Source of the DNA: an uncultured Acidimicrobiales bacterium | GTDB lineage: Bacteria; Actinomycetota; Acidimicrobiia; Acidimicrobiales; DATKAS01 | Reading direction: 5' to 3' | DNA length: 64,000 nucleotides | Assembly: GCA_963733765.1 (NCBI GenBank) | Contig: CAVTEI010000003.1 | Span: 1,935,711-1,999,710 of the forward strand | Shown here: positions 525 through 23,917 of the stretch, piece after piece | Layout of the letters: each line of letters begins with the position of its first letter | Numbering within the stretch: the first letter of the stretch is position 1 | Notes under the pieces: generated by a model | What the model was told of the DNA's origin: nothing | The model's input: the letters and a program-made list of their open reading frames with translations, nothing else | Databases searched by the model: none | Position numbers and translations under genes: made by a program

Positions 525-1687
525 GGCGTGCCGCCGTCGATGCGCAGGATCGCGCCGGTCGTGAAGCTCGAGGCGGCGCTCGCGAAGTACAGCGCGGCGC
601 CCACGACCTCGTCGGGCTGACCGCCCCTCCGCATCGCCATCGTCACCTCGGCTCGCTTCTGGAACATCTCGAGATCCCAGGCCTTGGAGATGTCGGTGAG
701 GAAAGGCCCGGCCTGGATGCAGTTCACCCGCACGGTCGGGCCGAAGGCGTGTGCGAACGCGACGGTCATCGCGTTGAGGCCCGCCTTTGCGGCGGCGTAG
801 GGGATGACGTCGGGGGAGGGCCGGATCGACGCGACGCTCGACACGTTGATGATCGAGCCTCCGTCCCCCTCGGCCATCCGGGTGCCGACGACCGCGCTCA
901 GCCGGAACGGACCCTTGAGGTTCACATCGAGCACCTTGTCGTAGAGCGACTCGGTGACGTTCGCGACGGCGTCGTAGAGCGGCGACATGCCTGCGTTGTT
1001 GACGAGCACGTCGACCTTGCCGAACCGCTCGTAGGCGGCGTCGGCCAGCGCGTCGACCTGCCCCCATTCTCCGACGTGGCACGCGAAGGGCAGCGCCTTC
1101 CGACCCGTCGTGCGCTCGACTTCCTCCGCGAGCTCCTCACAGGACGCGAGCTTGCGGCTCGCGATGACCACGTCGGCGCCGCACGCGGCGAACGCCAGCA
1201 CCATCGAACGGCCGAGGCCGCGGCTTCCGCCCGTCACCACGGCCACCTTGTCGGTGAGATCGAATTGCTCGAGAGGGTTGCTCATGGCGATGGTGTAGCG
1301 CGTCGACTGGGCGGCGACGACCGCGACTTCGACCAACCACTGGGGCCGGGCGAGCGCGGGGACATAGACGAGCGTCGACGCCGGTCGGTGGTCCTTCATC
1401 ACGGCGTCGCGAGCTTCCATCACCAGGGCCACGTTCGCGCCCGCCACGACATACGTCGTCATGGACACGATGTCGTCGATGACGAACCCCGACTCGGCGA
1501 GGATCACCCCGATGTTGCTCCAGACGAGCTTGGACTGTTCGCCGAGGCCCTCGGGGACCGATCCGTCGGGAGCCACGGGGACGACCCCCGCGGTGTGCAA
1601 CATCGCCTTTACGCCACTCGACACCACGCCGTGCGAGTACGCCGCGGCCGGAGGCGCGATCGACGCGGGGTTCACGGCGCGGTTCAC
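521..1687 (-). CDS. RidA/YjgF-like domain fused in frame to a short-chain dehydrogenase/reductase
   Basis: 388-aa ORF with a GTG start. The first ~128 aa look like RidA/YjgF (AAAYSHGV ... [10 protein letters not shown]). Residues ~137-388 are a classical SDR ([20 protein letters not shown]). No stop codon lies between the two parts. Confidence 0.8.
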
Positions 1688-1713
1688 GCGCGCGGGTTCA
1701 CGCTGGGGTTCAT
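1684..1713 (-). other. bridging mini-[12 protein letters not shown] between deoD and the RidA-SDR gene
   Basis: ATG 1713-1711 overlaps the deoD TGA (1712-1710). Its TGA 1686-1684 overlaps the GTG start 1687-1685 of the next gene. It lies in tandem (A/G)TGAACC units. Confidence 0.35.
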
Positions 1714-3057: not shown

Positions 3058-3849
3058 TCAGGCCGGTGGCAGGTCGAGGCCGCCCGCCGCGATCTCCTGC
3101 TCACCCTCGGGAGTGAAGAGAAACTCGATGAACGCGTCGGCCGCACCCGGGTTCGTCGACGCGTTGAGCTTCGCGACGATGCCAGGCACGGTCGCCCGCA
3201 AGTCGACGTCGAGCGCGAGCGACGAGACCGCAGCCGTTGCGTCGGTGCGGTAGGCGAGCCCCGCGCTCGCCCGACCGGTTGCGATGGCCTCGACGACCGT
3301 TTCGCCGTCGGTCGCGAGCACCTCTGGGCTCACGGTGAGACCCGCCCGCATCAACGCGCTGTCGGCAGCCTTCCCGCAGGAGGAGTCGAGGCTGCACAGT
3401 GCAACCGCGCGATTGGGGTCCGCCAAGTCGGCGAGTCCGGCGACACTCTCGGGATTGCCGGGAGGAACGACCAGTACGAGGGGGTCGCTTCCGAAGACGA
3501 GGGGCTCGGTCGCGAGGTGGCCGTTCATCGCGAGAAGGTCGACCGCGTCGCGTCCGATGCTGATGAACACGTCGCCCATCAACCCGCCGGCAACCTGATT
3601 GACCAGCCCGTTGGCGCCGCCGGCGGTCACCACCACCTCGACGCCGGGGTTGAGCTGCGTGAACGCGCTCGCAAGGCGCTCGACGGCAGGGGCGATCGGT
3701 GCGGCCGCGAGCACGACCAAGCGGCCGGTCGGAGGACCGGGAACGGTCGTCGGCGTCGTGGTGGCTACGACGACGGGCGCGACCTCGGTCGCACATCCGG
3801 CGAGCACCGCCGCGGCGGCGAACGCAGCGCACGAGAGCGGCCGTCTCAC
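3058..3849 (-). CDS. modA: ModA-like molybdate/tungstate-binding periplasmic lipoprotein (orphan, no modBC nearby)
   Basis: Lipobox AAAVLAGC, then LVVLAAAPIAPAVERLASAF...TAGGANGLVNQVAGGLMGDVFISIG, which aligns by eye with E. coli ModA (VFAAASL...SFASSGTLARQIEAGAPADLFISA). The GTG start 3849-3847 overlaps the upstream stop (GTGA). Confidence 0.7.
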   Translation of the reverse strand: MRRPLSCAAFAAAAVLAGCATEVAPVVVATTTPTTVPGPPTGRLVVLAAAPIAPAVERLASAFTQLNPGVEVVVTAGGANGLVNQVAGGLMGDVFISIGRDAVDLLAMNGHLATEPLVFGSDPLVLVVPPGNPESVAGLADLADPNRAVALCSLDSSCGKAADSALMRAGLTVSPEVLATDGETVVEAIATGRASAGLAYRTDATAAVSSLALDVDLRATVPGIVAKLNASTNPGAADAFIEFLFTPEGEQEIAAGGLDLPPA

Positions 3850-4784
3850 GTCTCGTACCCGGTGAGGATGCGTCGCGCGACGTCGGCACGGCGAGCCTGG
3901 AGGGCCGGGTCGTCCCACTCGGCCTCGGCTCCGAGCCGCACGAGCAGGTAGTCGAGGCGTTCGTCACCCATCACACCCAGCTGCACCGAGAGCCACCCCT
4001 CGCCGGCGGGCTCGACGCCGTACACCGTGTAGTCGTCCTCGAGAAGGTTGCGGAAACGATCGCTCACACGCACGGAGACGCGAGTGAGGTGCTCGGCGTA
4101 CGAGAACTCGGCGGGCACCTCGATCTCGTCCGCGGGAGGCGTGAAACGAGTACGAGTCATCGCAGCCTCGGCCATGAGGTCGATGCGGAAGTACTTCAGA
4201 CGGTCGTCCCGGTCGCGTCCGTACACGTACCACGAGCCGAACTTTCGGAACACCTTGTACGGCTCGATCTCCCGGTCGGTGGGCTCCATGGCGCCCGGCT
4301 TCAAGTAGCCGAAGCTCACGGTGGTCTCCTCCTCGACGCCGTCGCGCACGGCCTCCAGGCACGGCGGTTCGGGGAGGTGGACCACCACGACCCCGACAAG
4401 CGGCTCGAGCTTGTTGAGCGCGGCGTCGAGCGCGGCGTCGGGCCTGACCGAGCTCTGGCTGATGACGAGCCCGGCAAGATCCAGCTCGAGGGCACTGATC
4501 GAGCTCGGGGGCAACGACCGCATGTCGCGCAGCCAATGGGCGCTGTCCACCGACAGCGTCTCGCTCTCCTCGTCGTAGGAGAACGCGTCCGCCTCGTCGA
4601 TCAGCTCTCCGTCGCTCTGTGAGCGAAACGAGAGGTACAGCACGGGGTCGAGCACGGAGCGCAGTGTTGCGACGTCGACGCCAAGGCGTGACGCGGCATC
4701 GGGCAAGCCGACCGACCCTTGTTCCTCGGCCATGCCGAGGAGCGCCTTCAACACCTCGAACCGGCGTCGCGCGGACAGCGCCAT
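3846..4784 (-). CDS. pafC: HTH-WYL-domain transcriptional regulator, PafC-like
   Basis: 312 aa. N-terminal wHTH (RRFEVLKALLGMAEEQGSVGLPDAASRLGVDVATLRSVL) and a WYL-type core (IEPYKVFRKFGSWYVYGRDRDDRLKYFRIDLM). It is the second gene of a tandem pair, as in actinobacterial pafBC. Confidence 0.6.
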   Translation of the reverse strand: MALSARRRFEVLKALLGMAEEQGSVGLPDAASRLGVDVATLRSVLDPVLYLSFRSQSDGELIDEADAFSYDEESETLSVDSAHWLRDMRSLPPSSISALELDLAGLVISQSSVRPDAALDAALNKLEPLVGVVVVHLPEPPCLEAVRDGVEEETTVSFGYLKPGAMEPTDREIEPYKVFRKFGSWYVYGRDRDDRLKYFRIDLMAEAAMTRTRFTPPADEIEVPAEFSYAEHLTRVSVRVSDRFRNLLEDDYTVYGVEPAGEGWLSVQLGVMGDERLDYLLVRLGAEAEWDDPALQARRADVARRILTGYET

Positions 4785-4819
4785 CAGCGGAGCTCCGACA
4801 GCGCCATCAGTGGAGCTCG
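4774..4819. repeat. 23-bp tandem duplication of the pafB/pafC junction
   Basis: gacagcgccatcagcggagctcc (4774-4796) is followed by gacagcgccatcagtggagctcg (4797-4819); 21/23 identical. Confidence 0.9.
4784..4807 (-). other. bridging mini-ORF MALSELR* between the pafB-like and pafC-like genes
   Basis: ATG 4807-4805 overlaps the pafB-like TGA (4809-4807) as TGATG. TGA 4786-4784 overlaps the pafC-like ATG (4784-4782) as TGATG. It was created by a 23-bp tandem duplication. Confidence 0.35.
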
Positions 4820-5736
4820 GCCATCTGTCGCAGTCGCTCGCACAGGTCGGCGACGACCCTGGGTGGCGAGACGACTCGGACTTGTGTGCCGAGCTCCAAG
4901 AGCCTGTCGATCAGCGCCTCGTGGTTCTTCGACTCCGTTTCGACCGTCGCGTGGTCGTCTTGTCGGGCGGTGATCTCGCCCCCGACGAGGTAGGCCAACC
5001 GGGGCGCGAACGCGACACTCACGTCGAGCACGATGTGCAACGGCGGGTCGGTGCCCCATCGGTTCGGGTCCATGTCGAGGGCAGCGTCACGGTCGAAGTC
5101 GGCGGGGACGTCGAACTCGTCGTCGAGGAGGTCGACCTCACTGATTCGCTCGATGCGAAAGCTGCGCCGATCGCCGACGTCACGATCGTGGCCGACGACG
5201 TACCAGTGCCGGCGCCACATACCGACGGCCCACGGCTGGAGGCGGCGGGACTTGCCCTCGTAGACGAAGTGGACGCCACGTCGGCGGTGGGCGGCCCCGA
5301 TGAGCAGGCGGATCGTGTCGGTGACCTCGAGGAACACCTCGGCTTCGTCGTCGCCGACGGCCGCGCCCAAGCGCTCGGGATCGTGGTCACGTTCGGCCTC
5401 GATGCTCACCTCCACCGCCGCCGACGCCGCGATCAACGCGCGCCGCTCGGCGCGGCTGAAGAACGGTGGTTGCAGCTCATACCGGCCTTCCTGCGCGTCG
5501 TAGCGCGCTTCGATGCCGAAGGCCGCCTTCAGCGCCTCGAGGTCGCGCCGGAAGGTGCTGCGGAGCGCCTCGTGGGCCGGCGTGCTCGTGTCGAGAATCT
5601 CGCCTTGGGCGCCGCGCGGCACCTCGCTGTACCCAGGGACATCAAGCGTCGCTCGGTCGAGCGTGAAGGTCCGCTCGTGGCCGATGTACGCCGCGAGATC
5701 GAGAACTCTCTGGGTGACATCAGCGCTCGCTGGCAT
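4807..5736 (-). CDS. pafB: HTH-WYL-domain transcriptional regulator, PafB-like
   Basis: 309 aa. WYL core LQPWAVGMWRRHWYVVGHDRDVGDRRSFRIERI, with a C-terminal WCX-like region. It is the first gene of the tandem WYL pair. Confidence 0.6.
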   Translation of the reverse strand: MPASADVTQRVLDLAAYIGHERTFTLDRATLDVPGYSEVPRGAQGEILDTSTPAHEALRSTFRRDLEALKAAFGIEARYDAQEGRYELQPPFFSRAERRALIAASAAVEVSIEAERDHDPERLGAAVGDDEAEVFLEVTDTIRLLIGAAHRRRGVHFVYEGKSRRLQPWAVGMWRRHWYVVGHDRDVGDRRSFRIERISEVDLLDDEFDVPADFDRDAALDMDPNRWGTDPPLHIVLDVSVAFAPRLAYLVGGEITARQDDHATVETESKNHEALIDRLLELGTQVRVVSPPRVVADLCERLRQMAELH

Positions 5737-11598: not shown

Positions 11599-13227
11599 AT
11601 GCTCCGTCACCTCTGGGTGTGCACGGCGTGCGTCACGGCGTCGGTGCTGTCCGTCACTCCTGCGCTCGCCGCCGAAGACCTGCAGGGTCCGAGCCAGGTG
11701 CACTACGCGCCGCCCGTCGACGGCCCGATCATCGATCACTTCCGCGCACCGGCGGCGAGATGGGCGGCGGGCAACCGAGGCATCGACTACGAGGCGATCC
11801 CCGGCGAAGCGGTCCTCGCGTCGGCTGACGGCACCGTCGAGTTCGCGGGCCAAGTCGGCGGCACGTTGCACGTCGTCGTCAAACACGCGGACGGTCTCCG
11901 CACGAGCTATTCGTTCCTTGCCTCGGTCTCGGTGATCGAGGGCCAGCAACTCGCGCGCGGCACACCGGTCGGCCGCGCCGGAGCGTCGGTGCACTTCGGC
12001 GTGCGGCTCGGCGACACCTATCTCGATCCCGAGCTCGTGCTCGAGGGCCGCGCCTTCGGCGTGCGCCTCGTGCCGGTCGAGGACCAGACAGAAGCAGAAC
12101 GGCGGCTCGGCGAGATGGTGCGCGACGCGTTCGTCGACGAATGGGCCGCCGGCGGCGGTGGTGGTGTGCCCGCCGCTGTCGTGGGGTGGTTGCGCGACAC
12201 CGCGGATCCGGCCGAGCTGTTGCGTTTGGCCATCCACTACACCAAGGCCGTGTCGGTGCCGGTGCACATCGCGTCGGCAGGCTTCGCGGTCGCGCGGTGG
12301 TACCGACAGCGGACGACGTGCACCGCGAGCGATGGCGTCACCGCGATCGCGGAGCAACCCGTCGGCGACCACATCGTGGTGCTCGTCGCCGGGTTTGGGT
12401 CGTCGAGCGAGTCGGGCGCGGGCATCGACGGGGTCGACTTCGAGACGATCGGCATCCCCGTCGACCGGGTGATGCGGTTCTCCTACAACGGCGGACGCGT
12501 ACCCGGCTCATCCAGCGGCGCGAGCGGGCCGTTCGCCGCGCTCGACACGACGACCTACACGACCTTCGACAGCCAGCGACCGCTCGACGAGGCCGCGGAG
12601 CGTCTCCGTCAGACACTCGAGCAGGTCGCGGCCGAGAACCCCGGCGCCCCGATCGATGTGATCGGCCATTCGCAGGGCGGAGTGGTCGCGCTCCGCGCAC
12701 TCCAGCTCGGGGCCGCCGCCGGATCCCCGCCCGTGGGCGTCCGTCTCGTGACGATCGCGTCCCCGCACCGGGGAGACACGCTCGCGACCGGCGCTGACCT
12801 GCTGTCGCGCAGCCCCCTCCACGAGCTCGCGCTCGACGGTGCGGAGATCGCGATCCCGCAGTTCGCCGACGATGTGCACGACGACGGGTCGGCCCACGAC
12901 CTCTCAGCGGCGTCGGCGTTCATGGACGACTACCAATCGCGCGGGTTGCCGCCCGGGGTGTTCGCGGTGTCGATCGGCGGTCGCTGGGATCCGGTGGTGC
13001 CAGCGCGCGATGCGCGCCTCGACGGTGCCGCACACATCACTGTCGATGTCGGGGGCGTTGCCGCCCATGGCCGGCTGCCGTCCGCCGATGTCGTCACGAC
13101 ACAAGTCGCGCTGGCGGTTCGAGGAGCCCGACCGACCTGCGAGGGTCTGCTCGACGCACTCACCGACCACCTCGCTTCCGACGCCGTGGCCACGGCCGAG
13201 GACCTCGTCGCCCTTGGGTTGGGATGA
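11599..13227 (+). CDS. secreted M23 peptidase domain fused to a C-terminal alpha/beta-hydrolase (lipase/esterase-like) domain
   Basis: Signal peptide ...VTPALAAED. M23 core NRGIDYEAIPGEAVLASADGTVEFAGQVGGTLHVVVKHADGLRTSYSFL. C-terminal half has nucleophile elbow IDVIGHSQGGVVAL plus later Asp/His candidates (RWDPVVP, AAHGRLP). Confidence 0.8.
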   Translation: MLRHLWVCTACVTASVLSVTPALAAEDLQGPSQVHYAPPVDGPIIDHFRAPAARWAAGNRGIDYEAIPGEAVLASADGTVEFAGQVGGTLHVVVKHADGLRTSYSFLASVSVIEGQQLARGTPVGRAGASVHFGVRLGDTYLDPELVLEGRAFGVRLVPVEDQTEAERRLGEMVRDAFVDEWAAGGGGGVPAAVVGWLRDTADPAELLRLAIHYTKAVSVPVHIASAGFAVARWYRQRTTCTASDGVTAIAEQPVGDHIVVLVAGFGSSSESGAGIDGVDFETIGIPVDRVMRFSYNGGRVPGSSSGASGPFAALDTTTYTTFDSQRPLDEAAERLRQTLEQVAAENPGAPIDVIGHSQGGVVALRALQLGAAAGSPPVGVRLVTIASPHRGDTLATGADLLSRSPLHELALDGAEIAIPQFADDVHDDGSAHDLSAASAFMDDYQSRGLPPGVFAVSIGGRWDPVVPARDARLDGAAHITVDVGGVAAHGRLPSADVVTTQVALAVRGARPTCEGLLDALTDHLASDAVATAEDLVALGLG

Positions 13228-13252
13228 CCCGCTGTGATGACCCGCTGTGATG
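13223..13252. repeat. 13-bp tandem repeat (2.3 copies) at the stop codon of the M23-hydrolase gene
   Basis: gatgacccgctgt gatgacccgctgt gatg; the first copy contains the TGA stop (13225-13227). Confidence 0.9.
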
Positions 13253-19244: not shown

Positions 19245-20534
19245 ATGACCGACACCCAGGTACCGGGAGCACAGACCCCCGGGGCCGAGCAGCCGCCCGA
19301 GCAGCCTCGGTCGGTCGTCGGCTTGGTGCTCCTCGTCGCGGGCATCGTCGCCTTGGGCGTGCTCGGGTCGGTGTCGGCCGTGATCGTCGTGCTCGCCCTT
19401 CTCGTGATGATCTTCATGCACGAGCTGGGCCACTACCTCACCGCCCGGTCCGCGGGCATGAAGGTCACCGAGTTCTTCCTCGGCTTCGGCCCCCGCATCG
19501 GGTCATTTCGCAAGGGGGAGACCGAGTACGGGCTGAAGGCGATCCCCGCCGGCGCGTACGTGCGGATCATCGGGATGCACAACCTCGATCCCGTCGAGCC
19601 GGAGGACGAGGCGCGCGCCTACAAGAACAAGCCGTACTGGCGGAAGATGAGCGTCGCTTCGGCCGGCTCGATGATGCACTTCCTGATGGCGGCGCTCCTG
19701 CTGTTCACGCTGTTCGCGACCTATGGCCAGCGCAGCGAGGACAACTGGACGGTCGGAGCGATCTCGCGGCTCGGCAACACGAACACGAGCCCGGCGCTCG
19801 AAGCCGGCCTCGAGATCGGCGATCGCATCGTCGAGGTCGACGGCATCCCGGTCACGACGTTCGACGCGACGGTCGACCTGATCCAGGCGCGACCGGGCCA
19901 GCAGGTGGTGCTCCTGGTCGAGCGTGACGGCGAGACCTTCGAGACCGCGACCACGCTCGAGGAGCGCAACCCCGAGGGGGAGCCGGTCGGGTTCCTCGGC
20001 GTCGGCCCGACGTTCCCATACGAGAGCCAGTCGATCCTGTCCGCCGCGAAGAACACCGGCGTCATGTTCAAGACGCTCACGACCGAGACGCTCGGGGCGC
20101 TCGGCTCGTTCTTCTCGCCGAGCGGGATGTCCGACTACGTCGACACCCTGCTGGGACGGCCGGCGACGTCGACCGACACGGGATCGAGCTCGGACGAGGA
20201 AAGCCAGGGCGATCGCCCGCTGTCGCCGGTCGGCGCCGTGCGGATCGCCTCCCAGGCCGCCGACGCCGGTCTGCCGGAACTGCTCTGGTTCCTGGTCGTC
20301 ATCAACATGTTCGTGGGCATCTTCAACCTGATCCCGTTGCTTCCGCTCGACGGTGGCCACATCGCGATCGGCACCTACGAGAAGATCCGATCCCGCAAGG
20401 GCAAGCGGTACGAGGTCGACGTCGCCAAGCTGATGCCGCTCACCTACGCGGTGGTCCTGTTCATGGGATTCGTCTTCGTGTCTTCGCTGTGGCTCGACCT
20501 TTCCGACCCGCTGCGCAACCCGTTCGGGCAGTGA
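19245..20534 (+). CDS. rseP: M50 site-2 zinc metalloprotease (RseP/Rip1 family) with PDZ domain
   Basis: HELGHYLTAR zinc motif, central PDZ-like region, and second motif NLIPLLPLDGGH. Confidence 0.9.
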   Translation: MTDTQVPGAQTPGAEQPPEQPRSVVGLVLLVAGIVALGVLGSVSAVIVVLALLVMIFMHELGHYLTARSAGMKVTEFFLGFGPRIGSFRKGETEYGLKAIPAGAYVRIIGMHNLDPVEPEDEARAYKNKPYWRKMSVASAGSMMHFLMAALLLFTLFATYGQRSEDNWTVGAISRLGNTNTSPALEAGLEIGDRIVEVDGIPVTTFDATVDLIQARPGQQVVLLVERDGETFETATTLEERNPEGEPVGFLGVGPTFPYESQSILSAAKNTGVMFKTLTTETLGALGSFFSPSGMSDYVDTLLGRPATSTDTGSSSDEESQGDRPLSPVGAVRIASQAADAGLPELLWFLVVINMFVGIFNLIPLLPLDGGHIAIGTYEKIRSRKGKRYEVDVAKLMPLTYAVVLFMGFVFVSSLWLDLSDPLRNPFGQ

Positions 20535-20557
20535 TCGGCGCGGTGACCCCGCGGTGA
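20531..20557 (+). other. bridging mini-ORF VIGAVTPR* between rseP and ispG
   Basis: GTG 20531-20533 overlaps the rseP TGA 20532-20534. TGA 20555-20557 overlaps the ispG GTG 20554-20556. It contains the tandem copies gcggtgacccc/gcggtgagcccc. Confidence 0.35.
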
Positions 20558-21772
20558 GCCCCACCTACGAGCGACGGCGCACCCGTCAGATCCAGGTCGG
20601 CGCGGTGCCCGTGGGGGGCGACGCCCCGATCAGCATCCAGTCGATGACGATCACCAAGACGGCCGACGTCGACGGCACGCTCGCCCAGATCTACGCGCTC
20701 GCCGGCGCCGGATGCGACATCGTTCGTTGCACCTGCAACGAACCCGAGGCGGCGGAGGGTTTGGCCCGCATCGTGCCGCGGTCACCGCTGCCGGTCGTCG
20801 CCGACATCCACTTCCAATACAAGCTCGCCTTGGCGGCGCTCGATGCGGGGGTGCATCAGCTGCGCCTGAACCCCGGCAACATCCGCAAGCCCGAGCACAT
20901 CAAGCTGGTCGCATCCGAGGCGCGTGATCGCGGCATCTCGTGCCGCATCGGCGTCAACGCCGGCTCGCTCGACCCCGAGCTCTACGAGCGCTTCGGAGGA
21001 CCGACGGCCGCGGCGATGGTCGAGTCGGCCAAGAAGGAGATCGGCTACTTCGAGGAGGTCGGGTACGACCTCATCGAGATCTCGGTCAAGTCGTCGAACG
21101 TGGCCGTGATGATCGAGGCCTACCGGCAGCTCGCCGACGTCACCGATCATCCGCTCCACCTCGGCGTCACCGAGGCCGGTCCGATCCCGCAGGGGCTCGT
21201 CAAGGCCACGGCCGGCATCGCGACGCTGCTCGCGGAGGGCATCGGCGACACGATCCGCTACTCGCTCACGGCCGATCCGGTCGAGGAGGCGAAGGCCGGC
21301 CGCGTGCTGCTCGAGTCGATGGGCCTGCGTGAGCGCCGAGGCCTGGACCTCATCGCGTGCCCGTCGTGCGGACGCGCGGAGATCGACGTGATCGCGGTGG
21401 CCGACGCCGCCCAGCGCGCGCTCGAGGGCCTGAACCTGCCGATCCAAGTCGCGGTCATGGGATGCGTCGTGAACGGGCCGGGCGAGGCACGATCAGCCGA
21501 CATCGGCATCGCCGCCGGCCGCAAGCGCGGCCATCTCTTCATCAAGGGCGAGGTCGTCAAGCGTCGTGCCCGAGGACGCGATGGTCGACGAGCTCGTCCG
21601 TCTCGCCGAGATCTACGTGAAGGATGGCCCCGAAGCGGCACTCGCGCAGGCCGACCCGACAGCCGCGGCAGAGGCGGAAGCCGACCGCGCCGCGTTGCTC
21701 GACGACCGGGGGGCCGACGCGAACGCGAGCGAAGAGCGCGTCGAGCTGATCCGCAAGCGCGTCCAGACGTAA
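20554..21772 (+). CDS. ispG: 4-hydroxy-3-methylbut-2-enyl diphosphate synthase, frame broken near 21565
   Basis: ORF 20554 is IspG up to ...GRKRGHLFIKGEVVKR. The true C-terminus VPEDAMVDELVRLAEIYVKDG...ELIRKRVQT* is the +1-frame ORF 21566-21772. The remaining ~300 aa of the 638-aa track ORF are Arg-rich out-of-frame read-through. Confidence 0.9.
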
Positions 21773-21811
21773 ATCGGGCGGCTCGCTCCCACGGCTTTGG
21801 GACCATGGGCG

Positions 21812-23917
<2,106 letters not shown>

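Follow-up and report, generated by a model that had tools for sequence, protein, structure and literature searches.

A stuttered stop-start overlap bridged by an eight-codon open reading frame between rseP and ispG in an uncultured Acidimicrobiales bacterium

In a stretch of 64,000 nucleotides (nt) from an uncultured Acidimicrobiales bacterium, here called the window, the genes rseP and ispG are joined by a duplicated ("stuttered") stop-start overlap, as shown by comparing the sequences of related loci (labelled L with a number), and this origin is much firmer than the function of the junction. Translational coupling via overlapping stop and start codons is widespread. Within the window, rseP and ispG themselves do not overlap and lie 19 nt apart; an open reading frame (ORF) of eight codons, referred to as the mini-ORF, spans the gap between them (Table 1; junction 20529-20562, caGTGAtcggcgcggtgaccccgcgGTGAgcccc; wider reading ...ttcgggcaGTGAtcggcgcggtgaccccgcgGTGAgcccc...). 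The GTG of the mini-ORF at 20531-20533 shares bases with the rseP TGA at 20532-20534, and its TGA at 20555-20557 shares bases with the ispG GTG at 20554-20556. Both of its ends are GTGA overlaps, and rseP and the mini-ORF as well as the mini-ORF and ispG therefore each overlap in the manner of a coupled gene pair. The second GTGA (20554) lies 23 nt from the first (20531), a distance of 2 mod 3. The initial annotation of the window had described the two shared start and stop codons, the translation VIGAVTPR and the 23-nt distance, all of which agree with the sequence and its coordinates. The mini-ORF is best read as a tolerated by-product of the duplication that is possibly used as a relay for ribosomes, and not as a conserved dedicated element.

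The junction is built of three tandem units, U0, U1 and U2, all of which end in GTGA. U0, which contains the ancestral stop-start overlap and whose sequence terminates rseP in all members of the clade, is the template for the duplications. The first extra copy, U1, matches the 3' end of rseP at 10 of 11 positions and carries one inserted C, and the GTGA at the 3' end of the second extra copy, U2, holds the ispG start together with the mini-ORF stop. Both inserted units are diverged copies of the 11 nt at the end of rseP, which identifies the junction as a duplicated overlap. The initial annotation had described a tandem pair that duplicates the ispG start region, in the register GCGGTGACCCC / GCGGTGAGCCCC (11/12 nt), and Tandem Repeats Finder confirms it at 20539-20561 with a period of 11, 2.1 copies and 91% matches; in L161 and L163, the 11-mer GCGGTGACCCC is exactly repeated. 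U1 also carries a GTG (20543-20545) in the frame of the mini-ORF and a TGA (20544-20546) that forms a second in-frame stop for rseP and is a by-product of the duplication. The frame of the mini-ORF is open further upstream, giving 22 codons from GTG 20489. An interspersed repeat element was considered and rejected: the unit GCGGTGACCCC is not dispersed in the window, where eight sites match it with no more than one mismatch (4.6 expected), two of them being the local copies; an 18-mer of the junction is found nowhere else in the window, and the units copy the local 3' end of rseP.

The course of the duplication can be followed in relatives. The survey covered 160 ispG loci from genome and metagenome collections as well as contigs encoding the closest RseP homologues, and the offset d was taken as the position of the ispG start minus that of the first base of the rseP stop codon. 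The nearest genome locus, L001, comes from a metagenome-assembled genome with about 90% DNA identity to the window. The clade is marked by an RseP C-terminus that reads NPFGQ before the stop codon and by an IspG N-terminus of constant length (V-S/T/I-x-x-Y/F-x-R-R-...-T), and the GTG start of ispG is homologous throughout. Three states occur in it. In state A, represented by the nearest outgroups, L167, L169, L170 and L171, whose RseP proteins are 70-77% identical to that of the window, there is no extra unit and the genes share a direct GTGA overlap (cagTGAgcg, d = -1), which is the direct overlap of the ispG start with the rseP stop that the initial annotation had proposed to look for in relatives; the second ispG codon, AGC, comes right after U0 in L167, L170 and L171, and in L169 the direct overlap is followed by ATC. 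State B contains one extra unit, TCGGAAGGTGA in L166 and CGGCGCGGTGA in L165 and L001, lacks U2 and has the form GTGA-N7-GTGA (d = 10; gap TCGGAAG in L166 and CGGCGCG in L165 and L001), with an ORF of four codons. State C contains two extra units and has the form GTGA-N19-GTGA (d = 22), with the ORF of eight codons; it is found in the window, L081 and L161-L164, whose RseP proteins are 95-100% identical. The spacing between the GTGA motifs is thus 11 nt in state B and 23 nt in state C, and the frame of the double overlap is kept in both.

These states show the order of events. In the ancestor, the rseP TGA and the ispG GTG shared the four bases GTGA, a classic layout for coupling by termination-reinitiation; short tandem duplications, probably caused by replication slippage, then copied the last 11 nt or so of rseP including the GTGA, one extra unit of 11 nt being present in the sister lineages and two (12 + 11 = 23 nt) in the clade of the window. 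The rseP stop is kept by the upstream copy and the ispG start by the downstream copy. Both added lengths, 11 nt and 23 nt, are 2 mod 3, so that the GTG at the rseP stop reads into the TGA within the ispG GTGA, giving an ORF of first four and then eight codons, and the mini-ORF is thus an automatic consequence of the duplication length. By chance alone, between one third and one half of these duplications would be expected to have a length of 2 mod 3. A rough neighbour-joining tree places the overlap state at the base and groups L167, which has the direct overlap, with L166, which has one extra unit; this grouping suggests that a unit has been gained or lost repeatedly.

Table 1. Coordinates of the rseP-ispG junction, its parts and two similar junctions in the window
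Feature	Position (nt)	Strand	Description
rseP (site-2 protease)	19245..20534	+	429 amino acids; TGA stop 20532-34
ispG (GcpE, HMBPP synthase)	20554..21772	+	GTG start; true C-terminus at TAA 21770-72
Mini-ORF	20531..20557	+	8 codons, GTG ATC GGC GCG GTG ACC CCG CGG TGA (VIGAVTPR, stop)
Unit U0, TCGGGCAGTGA	20524..20534	+	last 11 nt of rseP, with ancestral GTGA stop/start overlap
Unit U1, TCGGCGCGGTGA	20535..20546	+	12 nt, first extra copy
Unit U2, CCCCGCGGTGA	20547..20557	+	11 nt, second extra copy
Hairpin CGCGG-tgacc-CCGCG	20539..20553 (20539-43 / 20549-53)	+	G+C stem of 5 bp; abuts ispG start codon
Junction of WYL regulator pair (pafB/pafC-like)	4774-4818	-	genes 4807-5736 and 3846-4784
Phosphorylase / RidA-short-chain dehydrogenase junction	1664-1713	-	PNP_UDP_1 gene 1710-2498; RidA + short-chain dehydrogenase fusion 521-1687

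The junction is real. It is carried by five other assemblies at 95-97% identity (L081 and L161-L164), three of which are named like short-read assemblies, namely L161 and L163 (NODE names) and L081 (a contig of a JGI metagenome, which differs from the window by two indels over 3.5 kb at 95% identity). The junctions of L081 and L162 are the same base for base, and those of L161, L163 and L164 contain single substitutions and no indel. In L161 and L163, the sole difference is AGC to ACC after the ispG GTG (at 20558, outside the mini-ORF), which keeps the GTGA; in L164, the GTG at the ispG start is replaced by ATG, so that an ATGA is kept, and the last sense codon of the mini-ORF changes synonymously from CGG to CGA. 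The frame and both overlaps therefore persist in all six sequences of the window clade. In L161, L162 and L164, the recorded gene calls begin ispG at this same position, and no start codon other than GTG 20554 is available to ispG in its frame from the last in-frame stop up to the conserved N-terminus.

The initial annotation had made its reading of the junction depend on the conservation of frame and overlap at orthologous junctions. Such conservation is found within the clade, in states B and C, but not across the class: among 133 Acidimicrobiia rseP-ispG junctions, the stop codon, the gap length (-1 to 150) and the frame all vary freely, and a direct NTGA overlap is present in 12 of the 133. 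Conservation of the junction throughout Acidimicrobiia was therefore rejected. A separate observation from the same survey concerns the motif (C)TGGCACACT, which is located about 10 nt 5' of the ispG start in many Ilumatobacteraceae-type relatives (L015, L020, L022, L036, L051, L077, L082, L090, L091 and L107). The window lacks this motif, whose role might be that of a translation signal or of a -10-like element driving an ispG transcript with a short leader or none.

It is tempting to speculate that the mini-ORF relays ribosomes from rseP to ispG, and this is the function tentatively favoured here, with both the translation of the mini-ORF and the coupling presumed from sequence features. Ribosomes ending rseP would reinitiate at GTG 20531, or ribosomes would start at the in-frame GTG 20543; they would then translate a few codons of the mini-ORF, thereby unfolding the hairpin at 20539-53, terminate at 20555-57 and reinitiate at the ispG GTG 20554. 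In this way, coupling would be relayed over a 19-nt gap that would otherwise weaken it, and the peptide itself would be without function. Reporter studies have shown that the efficiency of reinitiation drops steeply with intergenic distance and that about 20 nt nearly abolish coupling (PMC10666635), and short ORFs are able to deliver ribosomes to a coupled downstream gene (reviewed in PMC12548453); the distance dependence of coupling and the fate of post-termination ribosomes are, however, still debated (PMC12548453). The genes of the putative operon follow the order cdsA-dxr-rseP-ispG, all on the same strand, and this order is kept in relatives; no promoter-like or terminator-like sites were found in 20200-20800.

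Arguments for a function come from the invariance of the gap, from the frame and both overlaps being kept in states B and C and through the codon changes in L161, L163 and L164, from two further junctions of the window that have the same architecture, from an excess of bridging ORFs and from the reporter studies. None of the 19 positions of the gap varies among five state-C sequences, whereas 39% of 445 four-fold degenerate sites in rseP and ispG and 14 of 24 sites in the spacer 3' of ispG do, and since an invariant gap would arise at this four-fold rate with P ~7.5e-5, the gap is considered to be constrained. Bridging ORFs in a loose definition are found at about 16 of 103 junction clusters as compared to 4.5-7 in shuffles, an excess of 2.3- to 3.5-fold that is confounded by the non-independence of lineages and by shared gap motifs. 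At 90% identity, the offsets d with remainders 1, 2 and 0 on division by three are represented by 40, 25 and 20 clusters, respectively (p ~0.02, hand calculation). An annotation-free scan of 0.95 Mb for gapped junctions behind an overlapping start yielded 67 junctions with a spacing p of 2 mod 3, measured from the overlapping upstream start to the downstream one, and 48 with p of 1 mod 3. The statistical support for selection on frame is at most suggestive.

The main alternative is that the mini-ORF is an irrelevant by-product: the duplications would have made a plain 19-nt spacer, closed in frame by a chance of one half to one third, and ispG would be initiated de novo, for example through pairing of GGTGA (20542-46, 7 nt 5' of the GTG) with UCACC near the 3' end of 16S rRNA, or a post-termination ribosome would reach the ispG GTG directly. 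This explanation is possible, though somewhat doubtful, and several points speak for it or weigh against the relay. In a relay of two steps, the losses of both reinitiations are multiplied. At most rseP-ispG junctions of Acidimicrobiia, a gap of 4-60 nt is left without a bridging ORF, and going by these junctions such an ORF is clearly not required for the expression of ispG in this class. The invariance of the gap may be equally explained by an ordinary ribosome-binding region, as the 18 nt 5' of the rseP ATG, including its Shine-Dalgarno sequence AAGGGAG, are equally invariant. When the observed gap lengths are kept, the strict double-NTGA arrangement is not enriched (5.7 observed, 4.8 expected). 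The bias in d is weakly significant and fades with coarser clustering; the 0.95-Mb scan cannot be used, as spurious antisense ORFs in high-G+C DNA make it too noisy; and the frame argument derives from few independent events, each with the chance given above of being 2 mod 3. No significant RNA structure was detected at the junction, where the z-scores of the folds range from -0.04 to -1.28 and do not differ from those of shuffles; the fold of 20534-20560 has -12.3 kcal/mol and a z-score of -1.28. Finally, short tandem repeats are common: the tandem pair at the junction is one of 84 in the 64 kb, among them a 13-nt repeat at another stop codon, and a bridging ORF is present at 3 of the 16 short same-strand junctions of the window. 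On statistics alone, the parts of the junction are not unusual, and it is the comparative evidence that lifts it above chance.

The by-product explanation has its own difficulties. There is no canonical Shine-Dalgarno sequence in the gap, in contrast to that of rseP; no GGAGG-like motif lies upstream of 20531, and inside the mini-ORF just the weak GGTGA is found. If coupling matters, its near loss at about 20 nt in the published reporters would lead one to expect a compensating feature. The excess of bridging ORFs in the loose definition also argues against it, as does the fact that the 11-nt sister state and the three duplicated junctions of the window all have an added length of 2 mod 3.

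Two of these three junctions lie elsewhere in the window, on the minus strand (Table 1), and the spacing between their overlap motifs is 23 nt and 26 nt, both 2 mod 3. At the junction of the WYL regulator pair, a TGATG overlap has been duplicated in tandem over 23 nt, so that the sequence reads ...GAGCTCCAC TGATGGCGCTGTC GGAGCTCCGC TGATGGCGCTGTCC and contains an ORF of seven codons with a TGATG overlap at either end; the relatives L172 (92% identity), L173 (63%) and L174 (51%) have a plain 1-nt TGATG overlap and no duplication. The phosphorylase / RidA-short-chain dehydrogenase junction contains four tandem NTGAACC units with periods of 12, 14 and 12, and an ORF of nine codons, which begins in an ATGA that shares bases with the upstream stop and ends in a GTGA holding the downstream start.

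It is conceivable, if rather unlikely, that the duplication of stop-start overlaps is a general, frame-filtered process, whose products persist when the added length is 2 mod 3, giving a relay mini-ORF, or 0 mod 3, giving an in-frame extension. According to this proposal, the filter exists because post-termination ribosomes reinitiate at the retained start codon and need handing on to the downstream gene; after a duplication of 1 mod 3, reinitiating ribosomes would run out of frame across the ispG start, and such duplications would be selected against. The rseP-ispG junction and the two others described above, all within 64 kb, fit this proposal. A search of a literature collection for relay ORFs that arise when overlap junctions are duplicated in tandem found nothing. 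As a separate observation, a perfect 13-nt repeat, GATGACCCGCTGT, is present in 2.3 copies at 13223-13252 over the stop codon of the gene 11599-13227, and the following gene probably starts at ATG 13395, behind a GGGAGGAGAG motif. This repeat was considered as a counter-example of 1 mod 3 and rejected, as there is no overlap junction and the next gene start lies ~165 nt downstream.

The hairpin at the junction raises the idea that the duplication acts as an insulator, which separated the genes and created a G+C hairpin, a "ribosome termination structure", thereby uncoupling the translation of rseP and ispG, that is, of a low-abundance membrane protease and a cytosolic enzyme. The all-G+C stem of 5 bp begins 5 nt past the rseP stop, with -12.3 kcal/mol for the fold, and stable structures after stop codons reportedly govern reinitiation (PMC7518266). 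However, the fold energies do not differ from those of shuffles (z -0.5 to -1.3), L001, a state-B locus, has a different small hairpin, and by eye none is evident in the overlap relatives, which were not folded. An insulator would also leave the retention of both overlaps and of the frame unexplained, and this explanation is regarded as improbable.

Still less probable is a functional leader or micropeptide, in which the product of eight amino acids would itself act, or its codons would sense something and regulate ispG by an attenuation-type mechanism. Its position directly 5' of an essential gene of the methylerythritol phosphate (MEP) pathway and the conservation of the gap within the clade would fit such a role. 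The peptide, however, is not conserved: VIGAVTPR in the window is replaced by VTAR in L165 and L001 and by VIGR in L166, and it is absent in L167 and L169-L171. Synonymous positions are conserved as well, which argues for constraint at the level of RNA and not of the peptide. Neither the conserved peptide nor the alternative terminator structures that mark a regulatory leader or attenuator were found at the junction, which also lacks a terminator, a promoter and a match to any Rfam family. An assembly artefact (a long-read consensus error) or a misplaced ispG start, with overlapping genes or an ispG that begins at an upstream GTG, could appeal to the single-base insertions in dxr and ispG of the window and to L168, a contig with many broken genes that reads CCC in place of CCCC in the junction, but is effectively refuted by the agreement among L081 and L161-L164 and by the alignment of GTG 20554, the sole start in its frame, with the starts of all clade members.

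Close relatives provide a natural series of an overlap, a four-codon relay and an eight-codon relay upstream of the essential gene ispG, and these three states make the rules of distance and frame for reinitiation testable. If the frame bias is real, it would be evolutionary evidence for reinitiation in vivo at a retained start codon and would mean that a short ORF carries coupling over a gap that reporters deem too long; if it is not, the junction is simply a well-explained neutral duplication. If the frame-filtered process proposed above is true, termination-reinitiation in uncultured bacteria could be read by comparative genomics from the spectrum of indels at junctions, and mini-ORFs in chains would act as natural relays of coupling. 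For annotation, such junctions may mislead gene callers on start codons, and they are hotspots for small tandem duplications.

The identity of the two flanking genes is supported by their products. The rseP product matches the Pfam families Peptidase_M50 (4e-47) and PDZ_6 (1e-12), and its homologs are named RseP; the ispG product matches GcpE (4e-129). A sub-threshold Rfam match to the eukaryotic IRES_Bip inside rseP (19588-19703; 26.9 bits, gathering score 40) is almost certainly a chance hit in G+C-rich coding sequence. One extra base each breaks two essential genes of the MEP pathway, dxr (~18528) and ispG (~21558-21563), in the window as compared to the intact genes of L081, L161, L162 and L164, in which IspG has 405 amino acids; these breaks are probably errors of the assembly consensus and not signs of pseudogenes. 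The entry 20554-22470 in the list of ORFs (638 amino acids) is an artefact of the ispG frameshift, and L001 has another, different frameshift in the 3' end of ispG. The dxr-rseP spacer (19221) and the spacer 3' of ispG (21766) differ from those of L161, L162 and L164 by indels of 12-16 nt.

Among known systems, the closest is termination-reinitiation coupling at 4-nt NTGA and 1-nt TGATG overlaps (Huber et al. 2019, PMC6728339; Huber et al. 2023, PMC10666635), to which the canonical GTGA overlaps at the ends of the mini-ORF correspond. The nearest relatives with a plain overlap show the same GTGA between rseP and ispG themselves, and the two genes run in the same direction, with neither a promoter nor a terminator predicted in between. 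The junction in the window differs in that rseP and ispG are 19 nt apart, a distance at which the published reporters lose most coupling, and any coupling would need two successive reinitiations via the intermediate ORF. Mycobacterial interspersed repetitive units (MIRUs) are about 40-100 bp long and are found at many loci. They are described as apparently mobile short repeats that many mycobacteria carry, with an ORF coupled at a spacing of -4 nt to the flanking gene (1997 work, summarised in PMC12548453). The junction shares with them the actinobacterial lineage, a tandemly repeated intercistronic insert with a short ORF that overlaps flanking genes (both of them here), and a copy number that varies among relatives (0, 1 or 2 extra units); its units, however, are 11-12 nt long, derived in place and not interspersed at many loci.

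The leaders of synthetic two-cistron or bicistronic designs (BCD; cited in PMC12548453) are another parallel. Such leaders have a strong Shine-Dalgarno sequence of their own and a second one inside the leader. As proposed for the mini-ORF, a BCD leader is a short functionless ORF whose stop overlaps the next start and which delivers ribosomes and unfolds structure. The mini-ORF differs in having no Shine-Dalgarno sequence of its own and just the weak GGTGA inside; it would be fed by ribosomes ending rseP. A further parallel is provided by mycobacterial upstream ORFs (uORFs) that deliver ribosomes, which are reportedly located at the 5' ends of transcripts. These uORFs resemble the mini-ORF in being short, without a conserved peptide, in a coupling position and in a high-G+C actinobacterium (Shell et al. 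2015, cited in PMC12548453), whereas the mini-ORF is intercistronic and overlapped at both ends. Taken together, the rseP-ispG junction resembles both MIRU relay ORFs and BCD leaders, although it belongs to neither.

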